NCBI RefSeq assembly: GCF_004010195.1
Contig: NC_057719.1
Span: 41,503,679-41,542,512 of the forward strand
From: Chiloscyllium plagiosum
Taxonomy: Eukaryota
Length of the DNA stretch: 38,834 nucleotides
Reading direction: 5' to 3'
Position 1 is the stretch's first letter, and every line of letters begins with the position of its first letter. A program made the translations under genes and the position numbers. Positions 1 through 38,834 of this stretch are shown in pieces. Below the pieces are notes generated by a model. The model made no database searches. It worked only from the letters and a program-made list of their open reading frames with translations, and was not told where the DNA came from.

Positions 1-505
1 ATTGTGTGCAATTTTGGTCGCCATACTATAGGTAGGATGTGGAGGCACTGGAATGGGTGCAGAGGAGGTTTACCAGGATGTTGCCTGGTATGGTAGGAAG
101 ATCGTATGAGGAAAGGCTGAGGCACTTGGGTTTGTTTTCATTGGAGAAAAGAAGGTTTAGGGGTGACTTGATAGAGGTGTACAAGATGATTAGGGGTTTA
201 GATAGGGTTGACCGTGAGAACCTTTTTCCACGTATGGAGTCAGCTATTACGAGGGGCATTGCTTTAAATTAAGGGGTGGTAGGTATAGGACAGATGTTAG
301 GGGTAGGTTCTTTACTCAGCGAGTCAAGAGTTCATGGAATGCCCTGCCAGTAGCAGTGGTGGACTCTCCCTGTTTATGGGCATTTAAGCGGGCATTGGAT
401 AGGCATATGGAGGATAGTGGGCTAGTGTAGGTTAGGTGGGCTTGGATCGGCGCAACATCGAGGGCCAAAGGGCCTATACTGCGCTATATTCTTCTATGTT
501 CTATG
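1..505 (+). mobile_element. CR1 LINE 3' end (ORF2 C-terminus, 3'UTR, (TTCTATG)n tail), cut by window start
   Basis: ORF 39-272 (LEWVQRRFTRMLPGM..YEERLRHLGLFSLEKRRFRGDLIEVYKM) is the typical CR1 ORF2 C-terminus; ends in ttctatgttctatg. Confidence 0.93.
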
Positions 506-713
506 AAGGATTAAAAAAGATGTTATATTGTGAAAGGTAATGAGAAAGTACAACAAAGGGGAAGACTATTTGTCAATACTGAAGGATCAACTATTCATTT
601 TTTCACCCTGTAATGTTTAGGGCTATATTTTCTTGCCTTAATTTTAATGAAAAAGAAGGCACAAACAAGACTACCAGCCGAAAACACGTATTTTAAGATT
701 TAACTATGCATGA

Positions 714-821
714 TGTGAAGGTGCTGGTGCTGGGCCAGGGTGGACAAAGCTATAAAATCATACATCACCAAGTTATAGTCCAACCTGTTGGACTATAACC
801 TGATGTTGTGTGATTTTTAAC
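714..821. mobile_element. Fold-back fragment of PLE family A pLTR
   Basis: aaaatcatacatcaccaagttatagtccaac / gttggactataacctgatgttgtgtgatttt inverted pair; degenerate TSD tttaactatgcatga (699-713) / tttaaccatgtatga (822-836). Confidence 0.8.
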
Positions 822-1588
822 TTTAACCATGTATGACACTGTCCTTTAATTAATTGATTAAACAATCCCCCCAAAAAATGCTGCGCTTCATTTGTTAATG
901 TTATTACCAGTAACTTACACATTATTTACAACAGTGAAATTGAGAAGCAAGTTTCCTACTCAACTGGACTACTGAAAGACAAAATTGTATCACTGCAGTT
1001 AAAAAGTGAATTGCATGAAAGTGTCTGGATGATACCATGGACTTAATGTTATTTGGTGAAAAATTATAGCTTCAAATTTCCTGTTATACTGAAACCTGGC
1101 CTTCACCATTATCTATAAACCTTTATCAAGTAAATGAAACATAGATACAAGTTGCTGAGATTTTCCCTTGTTCAGGCTAAGTGTAAGGGGGGATTGCATT
1201 AGGTGTTGACAAATTCATGACATCATCAAGAAAGCACGCCTTATCTTGTGCCAATCAGGTTGTCAAGAGCTGAACATCAAATTTCAAGGCCTCTGAGCTG
1301 AAATTCCAGCTTGCTAACTCATGCCAAATCTTGTTCTCAAGCACTACCATTTAACATTACACCTGGTAAATTCACATGGTATCAATCACAAACAGATCTT
1401 AGATTCATGCCAAAATGTAATAGGATACAGTTCTAAGTGTACATTGATGAAATCACTATTTTTTAAGGAGAGATGTAATTAAACGCCTGTTCACTACATT
1501 TAACTTCCTTCGACTTCCTTATCCCTTTAAAAAATAAATTTAAAAATCACACAACACCAGGTTATAGTCCAACAGATTTATTTGGAAG

Positions 1589-1624
1589 CACTAGCTTTTC
1601 GGAGCACTGCTCTTTCATCAGGTG
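1589..1624 (-). ncRNA. Minimal hammerhead ribozyme motif in pLTR (slightly degenerate)
   Basis: Reverse complement cacCTGATGAaagagcagtgctccGAAAAgctagtg (extra A, one stem II mismatch). Confidence 0.65.
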
Positions 1625-2211
1625 ATTGTGGAGAATAAGATTGTAAGACACAGAATTTAGAGCAAAATTTTACAGTATGATGTAACTGAAATTATATATT
1701 GAAAAAGACCTGGATTGTTTGTTAAGTCTCTCATCTTTTAGAATGACTATGTTGGTTTCAGTTCTTTCACATATAAATCGCAAAACTTTTTTTAAAAGTT
1801 ACATTTTCAAGTGAACTATGACAATTGTTGTCATGTTGGCACAGACAAGGTATTGAAAGTGTAAACTCCCTGTGAGGCTGTCTGTGCCACAATAGTGAGA
1901 TTAAATCTAATCTAAAAAAATGGATATACTGAATCATACATGTATTCATGCAGTTTTTGAGCAAAGTAAAATGTAATTCTGCAAGTGCAAATTCACCCCT
2001 CATACTTATATGTGTATGTGTGCATGTGGATGTGTGTGGTTGGGGGGATGGTGGGGGGTTATGAGTGTCTGTGAGAGGGCGTGTGCGTGTGTGTGTGTCC
2101 CTGTCCGTCTGTCTGTGTGCCCGTTGTATCATGCAATGGACTCATCTATAGTGTGACATGAACACAAGGGGTACTGAACTTGGCTAACAGCACCTGCTTG
2201 ACCATTTTTCA

Positions 2212-2563
2212 TTGCTGCCTGTCCCGAAGTCTGCCTTGGAGGATGGTCACCAGAAGGTCCGAGATCGAATGTCCCAGGCCGCTAATGTGGTCTCCGACTT
2301 GGAGGGAACACTCCTCTCTGTTGATTATTCTGCAGTGTCCATTTATCCGTTGCCGTTAACTCTGTTTGAGCTTGCTAATGTACCATGCCTCAGGGCATCC
2401 TTGCCTGCAGCGTATTAGATAGACAACTTTGGCTGAGTCCCATGAGTACCTGCCACGTACATGATGGGAAGTATGCCCACGCATAATGGTGGTATCCGTG
2501 TTGACACTCTGACACGTCTTGCAGCGTCTACCGTAACTAGGTTGTATGGTATTGTCCTGAAAG
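2212..2563 (-). pseudogene. PLE GIY-YIG endonuclease fragment (inverted arm)
   Basis: RRCKTCQ..HHVRGRYSWDSAKVVYLIRCRQGCPEAWYI in ORF 2356-2739(-); mirrors the plus-arm copy. Confidence 0.85.
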
Positions 2564-3066
2564 CCCACACCTCCACTTCTCGCCTTTAAACAGCCACCAA
2601 ACCACAAACAGATCATGTTTGTAGCAAATTGCCCAGCTTTCAGGACAATACCATACAACCTAGTCACAGTAGACGCTGCAAGATGTGTCAGAGTGTCAAC
2701 ATGGATGCCACCATTACGTGTGGGGACACCTCCCACCATGTACGTGACTCAGCCAATGTTGTCTATCTCATATGCTGCAGGCTTGAATACCCTGAAGCAT
2801 GGTACATTGGCGAGACCAAACGAAGGCTACGGCAAAGCATGAATGGACACCGCAGAACTGTCAACAGACAGGAGTGTTCCCTCCCAGTCGGAGAACACTT
2901 CAATGGTCCAGGACATTCGACCTCGGACCTTCAGGTGACCATCCTGCAAGGCAGACTTCGTGACAGGCAGCAGCGAAAAATGGCCGGGCAGAGACTGATA
3001 GCCAAGTTTGGTACTCAAAGGGAGGGCCTTAACCGGGACCTTGGGTTCATGTTACACTATAGGTGA
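2564..3066 (+). pseudogene. PLE Cys linker plus GIY-YIG endonuclease C-terminus
   Basis: RCKMC..NVVYLICC..WYIGETKRRLRQSMNGHR..VGEHFNGPGHS..GLNRD, native stop at 3064-3066. Confidence 0.9.
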
Positions 3067-3085
3067 CCCCATTGCACTATACACA

Positions 3086-3292
3086 TGATTTGGAAATGCC
3101 GGTGTTGGACTGGGGTGTACAAAGTTAAAAATCACACAACACCAGGTTATAGTCCAACAGGTTTAATTGGAAGCACTAGCTTTCGGAGCGACGCTCCTTC
3201 ATCAGGTCTGATGAAGGAGCAGCACTTCGAAAGCTAGTCCTTCTAATTAAACCTGTTGGACTATAACCTAGTGCTGTGTGATTTTTAACTTA
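3086..3292. mobile_element. Fold-back pLTR-only PLE insertion with two back-to-back hammerhead motifs
   Basis: Inverted repeat centred at 3207 (catcaggt|ctgatgaagg); perfect 12-bp TSD gcactatacaca at 3074-3085 and 3293-3304. Confidence 0.9.
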
Positions 3293-3441
3293 GCACTATA
3301 CACACAGACACGCGGACACACACGGACACACACGGACACACATATCGACACTCCTACAGACACACACTCCTACACACATACACACACACCCTTTCTCGTA
3401 CACTCACACATACACTTCCACACACACCCTCTCACAGACTT

Positions 3442-3756
3442 AAACCCCTTCACCTTAAATTTATGTCCCCTTGTAACACTCTGTTGTACCCGGGGAAAAA
3501 GTTTCTGACTGTCTACTCTATCTATTCCTCTGATCATCTTATAAACCTCTATCAAGTCACCCCTCATCCTTCGCCGTTCCAACGAGAAAAGGCCTAGCAT
3601 TCTCAACCTATCCTCGTACGACCTATTCTCCATTCCAGGCAACATCCTGGTAAATCTTCTCTGCACCCGCTCCAAAGCTTCCACATCTTTCCTAAAGTGA
3701 GGCGACCAGAACTGCACACAGTACTCCAAATGTGGGCTAACCAAAGTCCTCTACAG
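3442..3756 (-). mobile_element. CR1 LINE ORF2 C-terminal fragment
   Basis: PHLEYCVQFWSPHFRKDVEALERVQRRFTRMLPG in ORF 3370-3744(-). Confidence 0.92.
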
Positions 3757-4537: not shown

Positions 4538-5240
4538 GACTATAACCTGGTGTTGTGTGATTTTTAACTTTGTACACCCCAGTCAACACCGGTGTCTCCA
4601 AATCTTGACTTTTAAAAATAAGCATTAACTTTCCTAGCCCCACTTCAAATGCTTCATGTGTACTTGAAGCTGTCAATTGAACTGTGAACTGATAGACACC
4701 CACTGTGATAAAGATACCTTGTAAAATCAGTCATTGTAAGAGAAGTCCTTTAATGATAGCCCTCAAGCTTGCCTCAACAGACAGAGTGGAGATATTTTTA
4801 AACTACATTTGTTTGTTGTCTCCACGAACACAGACCTTCAAAATAGAACCAGCCCTCTTTTCTGGACCTGTGAATTGTCAGACTTTGGGTCAGGACTTCT
4901 GTTCTGATTAAAATTAAGGCTGAAGACTCTAAAACAGTAGTACATGTTTTTTTTAAAAAAGGCTCCTCTTCTGCCTATCAATTGAACAACTGGATCTCCA
5001 CCGTGAATGCGATCAGTGACTTCCCCTTCCTTAGTGGAAAACTCTAATGCAAATAACAGTTAACATAGTGCAGAGATATAGGAGATGGCATTGGATATCA
5101 TTATTATGGACACCTACAACCTTTGCAATGCACCATTATGGAGTATGTCCAATATTGCTTTTTCAACATCTTTCAAAGGAATTTCACGCTACTCTTCATC
5201 AAAAATAAGGCAAGGGATGGAAATGTCACATTGACACATA

Positions 5241-8349: not shown

Positions 8350-8518
8350 CATGATTTGTAAATGCTGGTGTTGGACTGGGGTGTACAAAGTTAAAAATCA
8401 CACAACACAAGGTTATATCTATCTCCTCTATCACCTGATGAAGGAGCAGTGCTCCGAAAGCTAATGTGCTTCCAATTAAATCTGTTGGACTATAACCTAG
8501 TGTTATGTGATTTTTAAC
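8350..8518. mobile_element. Fold-back pLTR-only PLE family A insertion; hammerhead at 8432-8466 (+)
   Basis: cacCTGATGAaggagcagtgctccGAAAGCTA; inverted arms; TSD ataatacatgc (8339-8349) / ataatatgtgc (8519-8529). Confidence 0.85.
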
Positions 8519-32094: not shown

Positions 32095-34700
32095 TTCATA
32101 GAGATGTATGAATTCGGAGGAGGAATCGGATATTCAGCTCTTTGAATCAGCTTCACCATTAAATAAAATCATTGCTATAAAATCATTGCTGATCTAATTG
32201 AAACATTAAAAGTGCATTCTGCCTACTGTGATAATCTTTCACTGCCTTACTTAATAAAATCAATTTACACTCGCCTTAAAAAAAACTCTTCCTACACTTT
32301 TCAGAAAGAGAATTCCAAAGACTCATGTCCTCAGAGGGAAAGTAGAAATTCTCTGTTTAGATGGGCAACCTTTAATTCTTAAAGAGTGAACCCCTTAGGT
32401 CTACATTCTCCCATCCTTTCTATACCTACCCTGCCAAGACCACTCAGGACTTTACATGTTTCCATCAAGTGGCCTCTTACTCTAAACTCCAGTGGAGAGA
32501 AGCAACGTCTGTTCATTCTTCCTTTCTAAAGCATTCTCCCCACCCCATCCTCCATTGCAGGTATTAAACCCTCTCTCAAATGCCCTAATACATTTAAGTA
32601 TTTCTTTATATAAGATGACCAATACTGGACGTAGTACCACAGAATATGGTCTCGCTAGTCTCTATAAAATGAAGCATGTCCTTCCAGTTTTGCATTAAAC
32701 ACCCTCACGATGAATGATGATATTATGTTAGCTCTCCTAATTATTTGTTGTACTCACATGCAAACCTACTGCCATTTATGCAGAAAGACACACAAATCCT
32801 TCTGTATCTCAAAGCTCTATAATCTCTCATCAGTCAGATAATATATCTTTTATTTGCTGAAACTGAAATTTCACCACTTCCCACATTATGCTCTCTTTAT
32901 CACATTGCCCCCTCACTTAATCCATCTGTATCTTCTTGTAATTTCTTTGCGTTCTCTACGTGACTTACTTTCCTACCCAACCTTATTTCAGTTGGAAACC
33001 CTATCTTCCATCCATTCATCTAAGTCATTTCTATTCATTGTCAGCAGTTGAGGTACCAGCACCATTTCTTTTGACACAATACTTGTTACATTTTGCTAAT
33101 TTGAAAAATACCCATTTATACCTTCACCCTGTTACCTAGTCAATCTTCTGTCATGGCAATATGCCACCCCTATTTTCTGCAATAACCTTTGAGGTGGCTC
33201 TTTATCAAAAGTCTTCTGGAAATCTAAGTACAGTAGTATGTCCACTGATTTCCTTTTATTGATTGTGTGCATTATCTTCTCTAAGTACTCTAAGAGATTG
33301 GTTTAATATGCTCTCCTTTTCACAAATCCATGCTCATTCAGTTTAACTATTTTGAATTTATCGATGTGTCCTACTATAACTTCTTTAACAATGGCTTCCA
33401 AAATTTTTCTAATAACATATTAAGTCAACTGGCCTGCAATTTCTTGCTTTCTGTCTCCCCTCCCTTCTGAGTAAATGGGTTATACTTGATAACTTCCAAT
33501 CTAATGGGACAATCCCTAAATCAAGGGAGTTTTGGAAAATTAAAAGTATCAACTATGCATCAACTATCTCAGCGGTTATTTTACCACCCTAGGATAAAAT
33601 TGATCAGGAACTGGGCACTTGTCAACCTATAGTTCCATCAACCTATTGAGTACAATTTCTCTGAGATTTGTAATTTTCCTGGATTCCTCCTTTTCTTCTA
33701 TTTCCTGATGTATTACCGATGCAAGATACCCCTTCAACTCATCTGTCATCTCTTTATTTTCCATTACTAATTTCCCAGTCTTACTTGCTATTCTGCTTTT
33801 GTTAATTTTTTTCTTCTTTAAATATTTTTAGAAACATTTATGATTTGTTTTTACATTCTGGCTAGCTTTCCTTTATGCTCAAATGCTTTCCCTTTTTATG
33901 AATGTTTTGGTATTTTTTTCCAATTTTTTTTTGGAAGTATTCCATCCAATCTTCTGACCTGTCACCTATCTTTACAGAGCTGAATTCTTTTTCTCTTAGT
34001 TTGATACAATTTTTAATGATTCTAGTTAATCACAGAAGACAGGCCCACCCCTTGAAATCTTTCTCACGTATTGCAATGTTGCAATTCTGTGCATTCTGAA
34101 ATACCTCCTTATATGACTGCCACTGAATCTCTTCCTGATCAACAACTTAACCTAATTTGCCAATTCATTGTAGCCAGCTCTGCTTTAGTGGCCTCACAAT
34201 TTTCTTTATTTAAATGTAAACACTTTCTCAGACTCATACCACTCTTCTTGCAATTTATTAAATTTTACAATCATAATATGCTTGCTGTTACTTATGGGTG
34301 CCTCCGATAGGAGATAATTAAATAGTCTTATCTCATTTTATAAAATTAAAAATCACATGACACCAGGTTATAGTCCAACAGGTTGAATTGGAAGTACTAG
34401 CTTTCCGAGCGCTGCTCCTTAATCAGGTAGTCAACTAGCTTCAAAAGCTAGTGCTTCCAATTCAACCTGTTTGACTATAGCCTGGTATCGTGTGATTTTT
34501 AATTTTGTACACCCCAGTTCAACACCGGAATCTCCAAATCATGACTCCCATTGTATAATACATAGTCTAAGAAAGCTTGCTCTCACAGAACGTGTTGTTG
34601 TAAGAAACCATCCCAGAAACATTCTATGAACTCCTCATTGACTCTCTTGGCCTACCTGACTTTTCCAGTTGATATATAGATTATAATCTCTTATGAATAT
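32095..34700 (-). mobile_element. Highly decayed CR1 LINE
   Basis: Reverse complement of ~33190-33235 reads YLDFQKTFDKEP (CR1 YLDFQKAFDKVP); CR1-like 3' end near 32100. Confidence 0.7.
34344..34545. mobile_element. Fold-back pLTR-only PLE family A insertion
   Basis: Inverted arms around ~34430-34440; degenerate hammerhead; candidate TSD tctcattttataa / tcccattgtataa. Confidence 0.85.
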
Positions 34701-35323
34701 CACCACTGGGAGTTGTGGCCTATATAATTGCATCATATTAACACTTAGCTTCTGCAACACTTAACCTCCATGTTATTACATTTTTGTTGCTATCTTGTAG
34801 TTAAATTTTCCTTAAGACTTCATTTAGTTAAACCATTATAATCAGGATTTGGAGATGCCGGTGTTGGACTAGGGTGTACAAAGTTAAAAATCACACAACA
34901 CCAGGTTGTAGGCCAACAGGTTTAATTGGAAGCACACGAGCTTTCGGAGCGACTTTCCTTCATCAGGTGATAGTGGAGGGCTCAATCGTAACACAGAATT
35001 TATACCAAAAATTATGAGATGATTGAGAAGTTTACGAGAGGTGCGGTGGCAAAGTCTCTCTGCGTGGTCTGTGTTGTAGATCGACCTAAGCGGGTTCGTG
35101 ATCCGTAATCCTTTCGGGATCTTTCCTGCTTGCCTGCATTCCTGTAGAAACTTGATGTCTGTGTCGACATGTGCAATCTTCTTGGAGATCCTCTCCACTT
35201 TAAGCCAGCGGTTAGTGGTGTCAATAGTAGTCATGATTTGGAGATGTCGGTGTTGGACTGGGATGTACAACGTTAAAAATCACACCACACCAGGTTATAG
35301 TCCAACAGGTTTAATTGGAAGCA

Positions 35324-35358
35324 CACTAGCTTTCAGAGCGACGTTCCTTCATCAGGTG
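35324..35358 (-). ncRNA. Minimal hammerhead ribozyme motif (second minus copy at ~34935-34969)
   Basis: Reverse complement cacCTGATGAaggaacgtcgctctGAAAGCTAgtg; stem II partly mutated. Confidence 0.65.
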
Positions 35359-35540
35359 ATAGTGGAGGGCAAACAGGCAAGCAGGAAAGATCCCGAAAGG
35401 ATTACGGATCACGAACCCGCTTAGGTCAACCTACAACACAGACCACGCAGAAAGACTTTGCCACCGCACCTCTCGTAAACTTCTCAATCATCTCATAATT
35501 TTTGCTATAAATTCTGTGTTATAATCGAGCCCTCCACTAT

Positions 35541-35575
35541 CACCTGATGAAGGAGCGTCGCTCTGAAAGCTAGTG
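35541..35575 (+). ncRNA. Minimal hammerhead ribozyme motif
   Basis: cac-CTGATGA-a-ggagc gtc gctct-GAAA-GCTA-gtg; predicted cleavage after 35572. Confidence 0.8.
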
Positions 35576-35664
35576 TGCTTCCAATTAAACCTGTTGGCCT
35601 ACAACCTGGTGTTGTGTGATTTTTAACGTTGTACATCCCAGTCCAACACCGACATCTCCAAATC

Positions 35665-35913
35665 ATGACTACTATCAACACCACTAACCGCTGGCTTAAA
35701 GTGGAGAGGATCTCCAAGAAGATTGCACATGTCGACACAGACATCAAGTTTCTACAGGAATGCAGGCAAGCAGGAAAGATCCCAAAAGGATTACGGATCA
35801 CGAACCCGCTTAGGTCAATCTACAACACAGACCACGCAGAGAGAATTTGCCACCGCACCTCTCGTAAACTTCTCAATCATCTCATAATTTTTGCTATAAA
35901 TTCTGTGTTATGA
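35665..35913 (+). CDS. 82-aa ORF: PLE N-terminal domain only; second open copy on minus strand from ATG at 35234
   Basis: MTTINTTNRWLKVERISKKIAHVDTDIKFLQECRQAGKIPKGLRITNPL..; FLxxCxxxxxIPKGL is typical of PLE N-termini; ATG at the pLTR end (ccaaatcATGact). Confidence 0.6.
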   Translation: MTTINTTNRWLKVERISKKIAHVDTDIKFLQECRQAGKIPKGLRITNPLRSIYNTDHAERICHRTSRKLLNHLIIFAINSVL

Positions 35914-35929
35914 TCGAGCCCTCCACTAT

Positions 35930-35964
35930 CACCTGATGAGGGAGCGTCGTTCCGAAAGCTAGTG
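35930..35964 (+). ncRNA. Minimal hammerhead ribozyme motif
   Basis: cac-CTGATGA-g-ggagc gtc gttcc-GAAA-GCTA-gtg; predicted cleavage after 35961. Confidence 0.8.
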
Positions 35965-38112
35965 TGCTTCCAATTAAACACTATAATCAGAATTAAGATG
36001 TTGTTCCCCATATAGCTGCTATTTTCAATATGGTTCCAAACACAAGGCTTTATTAAATGTTTGAGGAACTGTATGGAACCAAGACTTTAATGTGCCCATC
36101 TACTTTCTCACTACTTTCAGAATAAAACAAAGAACTTGCAATGGAACCTTTCACAACCCAAGGGTATCACAAAGCACTTTATGGCCAATGAATTACTTTT
36201 CAATTGTAATCACTGTGAAAGAAAATAAAATATAACTGAATTCAGATAGCACTTCAAGATTCTCAACAGATTTACTTAGGTTGATTTATTGATTTATAAG
36301 GATAAGGGAGCTCATTTAGAATCTGTTTACTGATACCTGGGGACAAACAAAAGACCTGTGGTAGACATATCTCTCTTCAAGAGGCACTTGCTCCAGTATT
36401 CGCAATGTGCCTTGTGAGATAATAGATAATTTCACAAAATGAAATACAGTATAAACTTTTATATTTACACATGCTTACACTCATTCCAAACTTTGTTCAT
36501 TCTAGCTTGGATATTGCCTCTTTTACATGGGAGATATGGTATCCATGAAATGTAGAAAAAATTTCTTTATGATCGCCAATTGTCATAAGAGCCAGTGGAA
36601 TGTAATCAACTCACTCACATCAGCTTCCCTGCCAATTAACTGTCACTAAAGATGGAGGTGGTGAGATGGGAGTGTCAATATAATTAACCTTAAGGATCCA
36701 TGGTAGAAATATTGCTTCACACTTATGACCCTTTCAAGCACCTCTTTTAGTGAAAGAGTTTGCAGTGGATAACAGTATGTTCATTAGCAGTTTAACAACA
36801 AAATGCTTTTGTATGCTTCGTACAGCTGCTGTGGATTTTATTCCCTTAATTTCCCTGTGGATTGATAGTCTAAAAGGTTCCAGTAACATGTTGACAAGTT
36901 GAAATAATATTTCTTTTCAAAGATTCATTAGGATACCAAATTAGTATAATTTTCAAAATTATTAATGTCATTATTAACTTGTTGATGTCCATTTTCTGAC
37001 AAGTAAAAGTGAGAGATTATAAAGACTGCCCAGGGCAAAGAATGACAATAATGTCCAAACAAAATGCTATAGAATGAATAGTTTCTGCTAATGACATATG
37101 ACATTTCCCTTTTTAAGGTCAAAAATGGAAATACTTGTCAGTAGGAAATAGCAGAAAATGCATAATGGCTTCAAATGAATCTACGGATACAATCTATTTG
37201 TGCCATAGTGATTAGTAGTAGAGAAGTTGCAACAGTGAGTAATTTCCTCAAAGAATGCATAAATAATTAATTATCTCACACAAAGTCTCATCTGGTTGCT
37301 CCAGAGCCAAAGCAATTTTAAAGAAACATTTCTCATCTTTTGTAGCTTTTATGGTTTTATATTTGATCTGCTTCATGACATAGTTGTTAATAGCACTCAT
37401 CATACCAACATCAATACTTTGTTCAAAATATGGAAATTCCAGGTGGTTCTATGTTGGTAGGCTGTTGTGTAAGTAGTATCAAAAGATGAGAAAGATTTAT
37501 GCACAACATATTCTGACAGATCAGTTAGTTTTGCGGAGAATATTATTGAAATACTGTGGCTTAATCTGTGCAAATGCGCTTTCAGGAACAATATAGATAA
37601 TGTAACAATGATAAATGAACAACCCTTGGTTGGGAATGGGATAAATGAAGATAATTTGCAGGCATGAGGCAATTGTTACAACAACAAAATGTAATGTATG
37701 TTGTATTTAGTGTTTTAAGAGTTAATGAGCCAGTAAGTAAAACTAAATGGTCTCCAGGGCCTATTAGACAGCCTCATGTGTTTTTTTTGAAAGGGAACAA
37801 TAGACTTCCAAGTAATGCCATATGACTATTTATCATTTACCGTTTTTAATTCATGGCAGAACTCAAAGATGGACAATGAAATGAATCTGTTCATCATAAT
37901 CCTGGAGAATGGATCAATTGTCTTCATTCACGAGCAAACGCCAGTGAGAAAGCTTCTGTTTCTGAAACATAATCACAGCACATTCTATGAACAGAATATT
38001 CTAGTCCCAAAGAAATCTTATGCCCTGAATTTGTAAACATTGTATTGATTATTTATTTTGAATAAAATGTGATGATTTGTCACAGTTACATTGAAGAAAT
38101 TCTCAATTTTAC

Positions 38113-38424
38113 CTAATTACAGCCCATTAAAATAAAAGCTTCTAAACATTCATAGTTTGTTGTATTCAGTGTAGCATCCATCTCAATTAAAACACAATCT
38201 AATGGAATCCAATGAGTTTCCATATTACGCACAACAATGTTGAATATTTCATGCCATGACATCCTATCTAACATTAAAGTATCATTGAGCAGTCCAGGCA
38301 CTGAGGCGAGATTTTTCTTGAACAAAACTAGTTTCTTAATAAGAGGATTATTGCTTGTTAAGAACCTCATTAACTGCATATCTTGCCTCAGTATTTTGCT
38401 GATTCCTATCCTGTCAACCAACTG
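38113..38424 (-). other. Unassigned 102-codon open frame abutting a SINE insertion
   Basis: Open frame in AT-rich DNA; no recognised homology. Confidence 0.25.
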
Positions 38425-38603
38425 CTGAGGTGATGGCCTTGTGGTATTATCACTGGACTGTTAATGCAGAGACCCACATAGTCTTATGGGACCTGGGTTT
38501 GAATCCTGCAATGGCAGATGGTGGAATTTGAATTCAATAAACATCTGGTGTTAAGAATCTAATGACTACTCTGAATCCATTGCCAATTGTTGGAAAAACC
38601 CAT
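38425..38603 (+). mobile_element. tRNA-head SINE 5' part, interrupted by CR1
   Basis: A-box tggccttgtgg, B-box gggtttgaatcc. Confidence 0.7.
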
Positions 38604-38834
38604 TAGAACATAGAACATAGAACAATACAGCACAGAACAGGCCATTCGGCCCACGATGTTGTGCCGAACATTTGTCCTAGCTTAAGCACCTATCCAATTG
38701 CCGCTTAAAGGTCACCAAAGATTCTGACTCTATCACTCCCACAGGCAGCGCATTCCATTCCCCCACCACTCTCTGGGTAAAGAACCTCCCCTGACATCCC
38801 CCCTATACCTTCCACCCTTCACCTTAAATTTATG
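38604..38834 (-). mobile_element. CR1 LINE 3' end, cut by window end
   Basis: (CATAGAA)n tail; similar to 16474-16720 and to the reverse complement of 270-505. Confidence 0.92.

Follow-up and report, generated by a model that had tools for sequence, protein, structure and literature searches.

Organization of the locus

The window analysed here is a stretch of 38,834 nucleotides of the Chiloscyllium plagiosum genome (assembly GCF_004010195.1, contig NC_057719.1, positions 41,503,679 to 41,542,512 of the forward strand), and our subject is an insertion of about 1.1 kb near its right-hand end that derives from a Penelope-like element (PLE). The insertion (34846–35979) sits between two copies of a 12-nt target site duplication (TSD), CA(T/C)TATAATCAG, with one mismatch between the copies. 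It is built from a 389-nt unit in which the pseudo-long terminal repeat (pLTR) is followed by the start of the PLE open reading frame (ORF), which is joined directly to the 3' untranslated region (3'UTR). The units are arranged in two head-to-head arms, i.e. arm A on the minus strand (34846–35370; 525 nt, 1.35 units) and arm B on the plus strand (35374–35979; 606 nt, 1.56 units). Read from 35370 to 34846, arm A consists of a partial pLTR, ORF start, junction and pLTR; arm B consists of a partial ORF start, junction, pLTR, ORF start, junction and partial pLTR. The ORF-start/3'UTR junction is present three times in the insert (Table 1).

Direct repeats with a spacing of 389 nt could be identified on the plus arm (35374–35590/35763–35979, 96% identity) and on the minus arm (34839–34981/35228–35370, 92% identity), together with an inverted repeat of 451 nt (96%) within the insert. 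At 92–96% over 140–450 nt, these repeats are far beyond chance. An initial annotation of this DNA, made from the letters alone, had described one TSD-bounded insertion of 389-nt head-to-tail copies on two inverted arms, and the period, the arms and the 12-nt TSD were all confirmed. Its arm lengths of 1.35 and 1.55 units also agree with those measured, but neither arm amounts to two full units, and a 389-period array was not reported by Tandem Repeats Finder (TRF). Similarly, the fusion junction does occur in all three copies as claimed, but its true position is one base further to the left, between CATCTCAT and AATTTTTG, because the parent ORF continues with GCACC and the parent 3'UTR reads TGYA-AATTTTTG.

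Table 1. Features of the insertion, in window coordinates
Feature	Position	Strand	Remarks
Left TSD, CATTATAATCAG	34834..34845	+	The TTAAAC just before it matches element sequence at the right-hand end
Arm A distal pLTR A2, version 'b'	34846..35013	-	3'UTR end, TATA box, decayed hammerhead (core 34966, cut triplet CUC)
Arm A ORF start (parent ORF first 221 nt)	35014..35234	-	Junction to 3'UTR at 35014/35013; frame reaches 34884 (116 codons)
Arm A proximal pLTR A1, version 'a'	35235..35370	-	Hammerhead core 35355; 5' end 7 nt upstream of the putative transcription start
Central inversion point, AAA	35371..35373		Three bases without match in the parent sequence of either arm
Arm B 5'-truncated ORF-start copy B0 (parent ORF nt 99-221)	35374..35496	+	Ends at junction 35496/35497
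Arm B full pLTR B1	35497..35664	+	TATAAAT 35506-35512, putative start ~35536, hammerhead core 35544-35568, predicted cut after 35572
Arm B ORF start (parent ORF first 221 nt)	35665..35885	+	Stop at 35913 (82 codons); no Pfam family
Arm B terminal partial pLTR B2	35886..35979	+	Hammerhead core 35933-35957; non-standard 3' end at TTAAAC match to target
Right TSD, CACTATAATCAG	35979..35990	+	Organism B contig aligns only from 35979 onward

The parent family and the deletion

The ORF start was assigned to an abundant PLE family (689 candidates, of which 40 were scored), whose near-complete copies measure 3438 nt (L089), 3702 nt (L088) and 3044 nt (L090) from hammerhead to hammerhead (family 3.0–3.7 kb). 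A Pfam RVT_1 match in L089 identifies the parent reverse transcriptase (RT), and a GIY-YIG-type segment, without a Pfam match, could be read by eye in the translations of parent copies L087–L090. The parent family displays the organization of endonuclease-containing (EN+) PLEs, with a single ORF for RT and GIY-YIG between pLTRs. In L089 the GIY-YIG-type segment is preceded by a C-x4-C-x2-C linker (PCHGGRCKTC); a CX2-5CxxC linker is a trait of the Neptune/Nematis clade (PMC8557442), and by this motif the parent can be classed as a Neptune/Nematis-type PLE. Neptune is tentatively preferred to Nematis because of the vertebrate distribution described in 10.64898/2026.07.22.740005.

Compared to L089, about 3.05 kb is gone from the unit, ORF nt 221 being joined to position 3271. 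The locus retains only ORF nt 1–221, in line with the loss of RT and endonuclease noted initially. A sigma-70 promoter scan found nothing and is irrelevant to a eukaryote.

Hammerheads and the ORF start

Four hammerhead cores start at +35544, +35933, −35355 and −34966, 389 nt apart on each arm. All four contain the CUGANGA and GAAA cores expected of minimal PLE-type hammerheads. The plus-arm copies have intact stems with palindromic G-C at 15.2/16.2; stem II is intact only in these two and broken in both minus-arm copies, and the distal minus-arm hammerhead has the cut triplet CUC, not CUA. The earlier description of four hammerheads spaced exactly 389 nt is thus correct for the cores and the spacing, but not for stem II of the minus arm nor for the distal triplet, while the assignment to minimal, dimer-type PLE hammerheads was borne out by inspection of cores and stems. 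They are not canonical type I hammerheads, as the monomer is of the minimal PLE type without a closed helix III. An Rfam scan of 33000–38834 gave no hammerhead model at threshold; its microRNA matches coincide with an older palindrome at 34370–34479, fall below the gathering score and were rejected as spurious.

The reading frame extends over 82 codons on the plus arm and 116 codons on the minus arm, of which about 73 are parent-derived and the rest read-through, close to the pLTR, ATG and roughly 75 codons of PLE N-terminus counted initially. No Pfam family matches the ORF stub. We treat it as passive, without sign of selection, because four of the five shared ORF changes are non-synonymous, the stops differ between copies and a Pfam match is lacking. 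The coding capacity ascribed to the unit is thus not accompanied by a signal of selection. By analogy with a PLE of a different clade from anole, the ORF-start RNA may nevertheless help to bind or recruit the parent protein.

Genome-wide distribution of the junction

A 21-nt junction pattern, with one mismatch allowed, gave three hits in the 3.56-Gb assembly, all at the locus, against none for the control. A 71-nt junction-spanning query matched at full length only the three local copies (40 of 596 candidates scored). The junction is confined to one locus, and the proposal of a non-autonomous PLE satellite therefore fails by a criterion set beforehand, namely that the junction should not be unique to this locus: no second, independent locus with a distinct TSD was found in the assembly, and a satellite family of junction-bearing units is not supported. 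The multiple genomic copies that characterize retrozymes are likewise not seen, the junction occurring at one locus only. A search for daughters with b-type pLTR variants gave 12 hits, two local and ten in divergent copies, read as chance. Other hammerhead pairs at a spacing of 354–414 gave eight hits, two local and six elsewhere, none with this unit; of the matching loci, L083 and L086 are 95% alike and seem to be a single locus or a duplicate.

Comparable architectures were surveyed in a census built from 98 exact matches to a 21-nt ORF-start pattern (two from the studied locus) and the loci of the parent search. With eight duplicates dropped, it holds 100 distinct loci, or 99 without the yardstick's own place, and covers copies that retain ORF nt 98–118 or score at the top in the parent search. 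Short fusions, in which no more than 350 nt of the ORF start is joined to the 3' end, were hand-listed at 22 of the 99 loci, nearly all with their own distinct junction, and a head-to-head inverted pLTR lies upstream at 31 of the 99. The architecture is a recurrent by-product and not a new mobile family, because the junction is unique to the locus and similar stubs are common in the census. The studied locus is the longest repeated-junction example seen there.

Several other loci display repeated junctions of their own. In each of L141 (C20) and L102 (C3), the two inverted arms have an ORF-start/3'UTR junction in common (158 to 3122 and 154 to 3239, respectively), and L141 is young, without aged shared variants. 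L117 contains a 327-nt unit with one junction twice in tandem, followed by a third unit with another junction. L117/L176 and L175 (C6) lie 142 kb apart; L175 shares the upstream flank (98.6%), and given this common flank the L117 tandem may be a DNA duplication. L103 (C3) has the same junction as L117 and a 3' part resembling another subfamily, suggesting an independent origin; it joins parts that resemble two different subfamilies, as expected of a jump between RNAs. L124:1358–1682 and L145 (G000 C9, C22) lie on different chromosomes and have different flanks but the same complex central inversion junction, and also share a 26-nt ORF scrap and derived variants, with long and short tails swapped. 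Here an inverted PLE composite seems to have moved again in its entirety, in the manner of a miniature inverted-repeat transposable element (MITE), with two hits genome-wide. Junction searches for L117/L103, L124/L145 and L141 returned 4, 2 and 2 hits, i.e. no amplified family.

Further rearranged copies include L085:1247–1941 (C44), of another PLE subfamily, with a 369-nt tandem duplication (97%) that includes an inversion junction and is likely a DNA-level duplication, and L084:1113–1957 (C31), with four pLTR pieces in alternating orientation and a 365-nt repeat, one piece ending a few bases past the hammerhead cut. Within the window, an older small inverted pLTR insertion of a related subfamily lies 290 nt left of the insert (34339–34558). 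More PLE ends and endonuclease fragments are found at 719–824, 1536–3291, 4538–4604 and 8353–8518, several of them as inverted pairs with hammerhead cores.

Age of the junction

The variants 35808G and 35833C are present in all three ORF copies and in none of the other aligned copies (0/27 and 0/27). A pattern with both variants, one mismatch allowed, gave only these three hits assembly-wide. Rare non-CpG variants common to both arms occur at 4 of 189 nt here, compared to 10 of 4191 nt in 37 other inverted pairs (Fisher p=0.002). By hand count, only some 10 changes in 1131 nt are private. In organism B, a related organism, one contig of single-copy depth matches the right flank (35979–36300) and then continues with 306 upstream letters unlike the element, and this contig appears to represent the empty site. 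Its flank differs from the window by six substitutions and one indel in 322 nt, two of which are also seen in an organism A run.

The shared rare variants and the apparent empty site suggest that the junction probably predates the insertion, as had been supposed initially. A young insertion carrying old shared mutations points to an aged template elsewhere; the source locus is absent from the assembly, so one has to suppose that it was lost, is not fixed or failed to assemble. The insertion likely arose when a deleted copy, already aged and now missing, was mobilised again in trans. As regards a non-autonomous derivative, the deletion itself is observed, and re-mobilisation is suggested by the rare variants common to the copies and by what seems to be an empty site.

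In organism B, non-family letters at 35833 and 35808 reach a depth of about 39–99, which may be chance or a related copy. Run X1 (84% read, some records filtered) contained no aligned contig with the window letters at 35808/35819/35833/35845, from which nothing is concluded. The contigs of run X16 are copies of the PLE family.

A probably linear template

A circular template holds each position once, and all copies made from it should therefore start identical. The pLTR copies A1 and A2 disagree at 7 of 92 non-CpG sites right of the predicted cut, compared to 1 of 221 between the ORF copies of arms A and B (p=0.001). At 35628, 35636 and 35652, A2 has the family letter and A1 and B1 a common derived letter; at 35598 and 35602, A1 has the family letter and A2 and B1 a common derived letter. 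B1 is a mosaic, b-type as far as 35602 and a-type from 35628 onward. On a linear template that reads a, ORF start, junction and b, one a-to-b switch in 35603–35627 explains five of the seven non-CpG variants found in only some copies, because B1 carries A2 alleles on the left and A1 alleles on the right. This interval, whose end coincides with the short standard 3' end of the family, is separated from the hammerhead cut by 30–55 nt.

The ends of family members were compared with these positions. Among 103 pLTR-region 5' ends (five from the studied locus; BLAST edges are uncertain by a few bases), 20 fall at unit positions 3303–3311 against 4.2 expected (P=2e-8, uncorrected for window choice), about 30 nt after TATAAAT. 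At the hammerhead cut there are 7 against 4.2 expected (P=0.13), i.e. no excess. The 5' ends and rejoin points cluster at 3309–3311, about 8 nt before the hammerhead core, and this position is a candidate pLTR transcription start (window ~35536). As for 3' ends, 60 of 63 lie in two clusters about 37 nt apart, at 3400–3416 and 3436–3445. Most of what had been called permuted arm ends corresponds to normal PLE termini: the 3' end of arm A falls in the second cluster, the A2 terminus being the family's standard long-tail 3' end immediately before the ATG, and the 5' end of this arm lies in the family's main cluster. Finally, the cut-to-cut unit folded as a circle gives z-scores of −1.2 (plus-arm) and +0.56 (minus-arm) against 60 shuffles, with 53–59% of bases paired. 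This is no better than shuffles, where a retrozyme would be a highly self-paired circular monomer.

Proposed mechanism and alternative explanations

We lean, if only slightly, towards the locus being a second-generation copy of a deleted Neptune-type PLE (pLTR, 221-nt ORF start, pLTR), most likely made from linear RNA. In a first step, RT that had copied a pLTR would have halted within the 3'UTR and restarted on a read-through RNA, 221 nt into its ORF, creating the junction; the class of deletion is observed, and this origin for it is our reconstruction. The deleted copy would then have aged by about 2%, as suggested by the shared variants, and been transcribed from its own pLTR promoter. Subsequently, the parent protein would have nicked both target strands and primed cDNA synthesis on each, a step suggested by the TSD, the arm ends and published biochemistry. 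Arm A would be the product of a single full pass that began at the standard 3' start and ran approximately to the transcription start. For arm B, RT would have copied a unit, changed from pLTR a to pLTR b somewhere within 35603–35627, and then copied a further part-unit. The hammerheads likely rode along uncleaved.

Several points weigh against this reconstruction. The source locus is missing from the assembly, the 306 letters upstream in the organism B contig are only presumed to correspond to the left flank, and none of the contig pieces listed bridged the junction or the central inversion. The three left pLTR parts adjacent to the junction have no common rare variant, and 35555A (in A1 and A2) and 35819C (only in B0) are unexplained by a single switch. 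The pLTR start site is placed from DNA ends only, and the arm A 5' end, at 3303, lies 7 nt upstream of the modal 3310. The arm B 3' end (3364) is not standard and lies at a TTAAAC match to the target. Moreover, the terminal pLTRs have more private changes than the internal copies (6/262 vs 4/869 non-CpG sites, p=0.013, hand count), so later DNA-level copying stays in play.

Such copying would imply that an ordinary inverted insertion with a deletion aged in place, and that template-switching or gene conversion then copied arm A into arm B. Apart from the older look of the terminal pLTRs, this agrees with a divergence of 2–4% at rare non-CpG sites, near the family median of 1.8%, and with the duplication of PLE junctions at DNA level elsewhere (L085; L117/L175). 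We nonetheless regard it as rather unlikely, as an insertion aged 2–3% should predate the organism B split (1–2% pairwise in the flank), yet organism B is apparently empty, and as other inverted loci are almost unhomogenised, with 10 shared against 134 private variants. Unlikely too, though deserving slightly more credit, is a one-step fold-back, in which a jump from one RNA to another during insertion made the junction, and the first-strand cDNA of arm A served, with one a/b switch, as the template for arm B, without any deleted source. It predicts the same b-then-a mosaic in B1 and a locus-unique junction, and each arm B base does have an arm A counterpart. Self-priming has been suggested for PLE inverted repeats (PMC3846280), and L141 and L102 are single loci that each have a junction of their own on both arms, L141 being free of aged shared variants. 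However, fold-back requires two separately aged donor RNAs (a with the ORF start, and b), neither of which was found, and the ten other hits of the b-type pattern are in copies only 80–92% like A2 (9/10 compared). In addition, self-priming would find no overlap at the centre, where three bases are unmatched, and at L141 an extra switch is needed before either arm fits within the other. Mis-assembly of tandem and inverted copies is very improbable indeed. PLE structures of this kind are known to trouble assemblies (PMC8557442), and the unbridged junction and centre would fit an artefact, but the copies differ by 4–8% with private substitutions, the TSD is clean, the window stretch is gap-free and the same architecture with other junctions occurs at other loci. 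A run X1 contig (depth 8.7) furthermore has the right flank and 28 nt of the element end, which falls below the 31-letter bridging rule.

The initial annotation had favoured rolling reverse transcription of a 389-nt circle. In this explanation, self-cleavage by the hammerheads frees a 389-nt monomer, which circularises, and the PLE RT rolls around it on both target strands. The exact 389-nt core spacing and the intact plus-arm stems with their palindromic G-C agree with it, as does the unit size, which is within the animal retrozyme range (PMC7229834; the mean unit in one cartilaginous fish is 363 bp, 10.64898/2026.07.22.740005), and such a route was proposed for PLE tandems by Cervera and De la Pena (PMC4209133). 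The non-identical pLTRs are difficult to reconcile with a circle, since at least three subsequent conversions would be required to account for the seven non-CpG variants found in a subset of copies. The a/b switch lies off the cut, the family 5' ends show no excess there, the fold is ordinary and no daughters are present in the assembly. Minimal hammerheads cleave weakly in vitro (PMC4209133), and cleavage is unnecessary for insertion in vitro (PMC11167929). We therefore consider the circle improbable. The same small probability attaches to a bolder version, namely that the locus is a genomic trace of the birth of a retrozyme: a deleted PLE with an ORF start, cut by dimeric hammerheads, circularised, rolled on both strands and later blurred by gene conversion. 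The retained ORF start would then likely be a binding site for the parent protein and, if this were true, the short ORF-start fusions, about one in five, would be a nursery from which retrozyme families occasionally arise.

Significance

The locus itself is a dead-end by-product. Its value is that of a natural barcode: since mutations were already present in the template, the course taken by RT can be followed, and that course indicates a linear RNA carrying two different pLTRs, not a hammerhead circle. The variant path and the 5'-end census bear modestly on the open question whether PLE tandems come from circles. In this one genome, short pLTR-ORF-start units arise often and rarely spread in our sample, and this frequent origin with rare spread is a step left unspecified by the published PLE-to-retrozyme model.

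Comparison with known systems

A link from PLEs to retrozymes has been proposed before (10.64898/2026.07.22.740005; PMC4209133), and PLE-derived tandem hammerhead units have already been published. Cervera and De la Pena described minimal hammerheads in PLEs, weak dimer cleavage and the circle hypothesis (PMC4209133). Li, Clavereau and Pollet (2026) derive animal retrozymes from PLE pLTRs and observed cleavage in 1/9 dimers tested (10.64898/2026.07.22.740005). The idea of an intermediate between PLE and retrozyme thus stands in print as far as the link is concerned, but the present locus resembles a retrozyme in layout only and departs from one in family, hammerhead type and fold. Craig et al. 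reported tandem and inverted PLE structures and non-autonomous head-to-tail PLEs (PMC8557442), and Arkhipova et al. copies with internal deletions that have inverted pLTRs and a TSD on their flanks, with pLTRs sufficing for mobilisation in trans (PMC3846280). The literature searched yielded nothing on repeated deletion junctions in shark PLEs, and the supplements of 10.64898/2026.07.22.740005 may list such loci.

For the green anole Poseidon element PAc, Frangieh et al. showed internal initiation and cutting and extension of both target strands, with cleavage dispensable, uncleaved RNA as the main substrate and a minimal RNA that needs the first 172 nt of the ORF (PMC11167929). The insert would be like PAc in its two adjacent internal RT starts, in both strands being cut and extended and in cleavage being dispensable. 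However, the PAc start sites are inside the ORF, whereas the two standard ends of the insert's family are just before the ATG, and PAc priming is reported as non-homologous, whereas one insert end has a 6–7 nt target match. Putative non-autonomous PLEs of Chlamys such as MRC1 share with the insert their pLTRs and, as multicopy insertions, the head-to-tail arrangement, but these are dispersed, active families (PMC8557442), whereas the junction of the insert never spread in the assembly.

Animal non-LTR retrozymes are like the insert in having type I hammerheads, a spacing of 300–400 nt and a GC content of 45%, and in being non-autonomous with PLE-related terminal sequence (PMC7229834; 10.64898/2026.07.22.740005). 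Retrozyme circles are highly self-paired (PMC7229834). Unlike retrozymes, the insert has a minimal hammerhead, a single locus, fewer than two full units per arm (two hammerheads on each, at 1.35 and 1.56 units, and no 389-period TRF array) and a circle that is not self-paired above chance, and unlike the non-coding retrozymes it keeps the ORF start with a frame of 82–116 codons. The closest likeness is with EN+ Neptune-type PLEs with a tail of 30–40 nt, which share direct and inverted pLTRs, an AT-rich TSD, 5' truncation, two 3' ends about 37 nt apart and a minimal pLTR hammerhead (PMC8557442; PMC3846280). Unlike in those PLEs, the repeated unit of the insert is the deleted form itself, with the deletion junction three times, and its rare template variants make the copying path readable.

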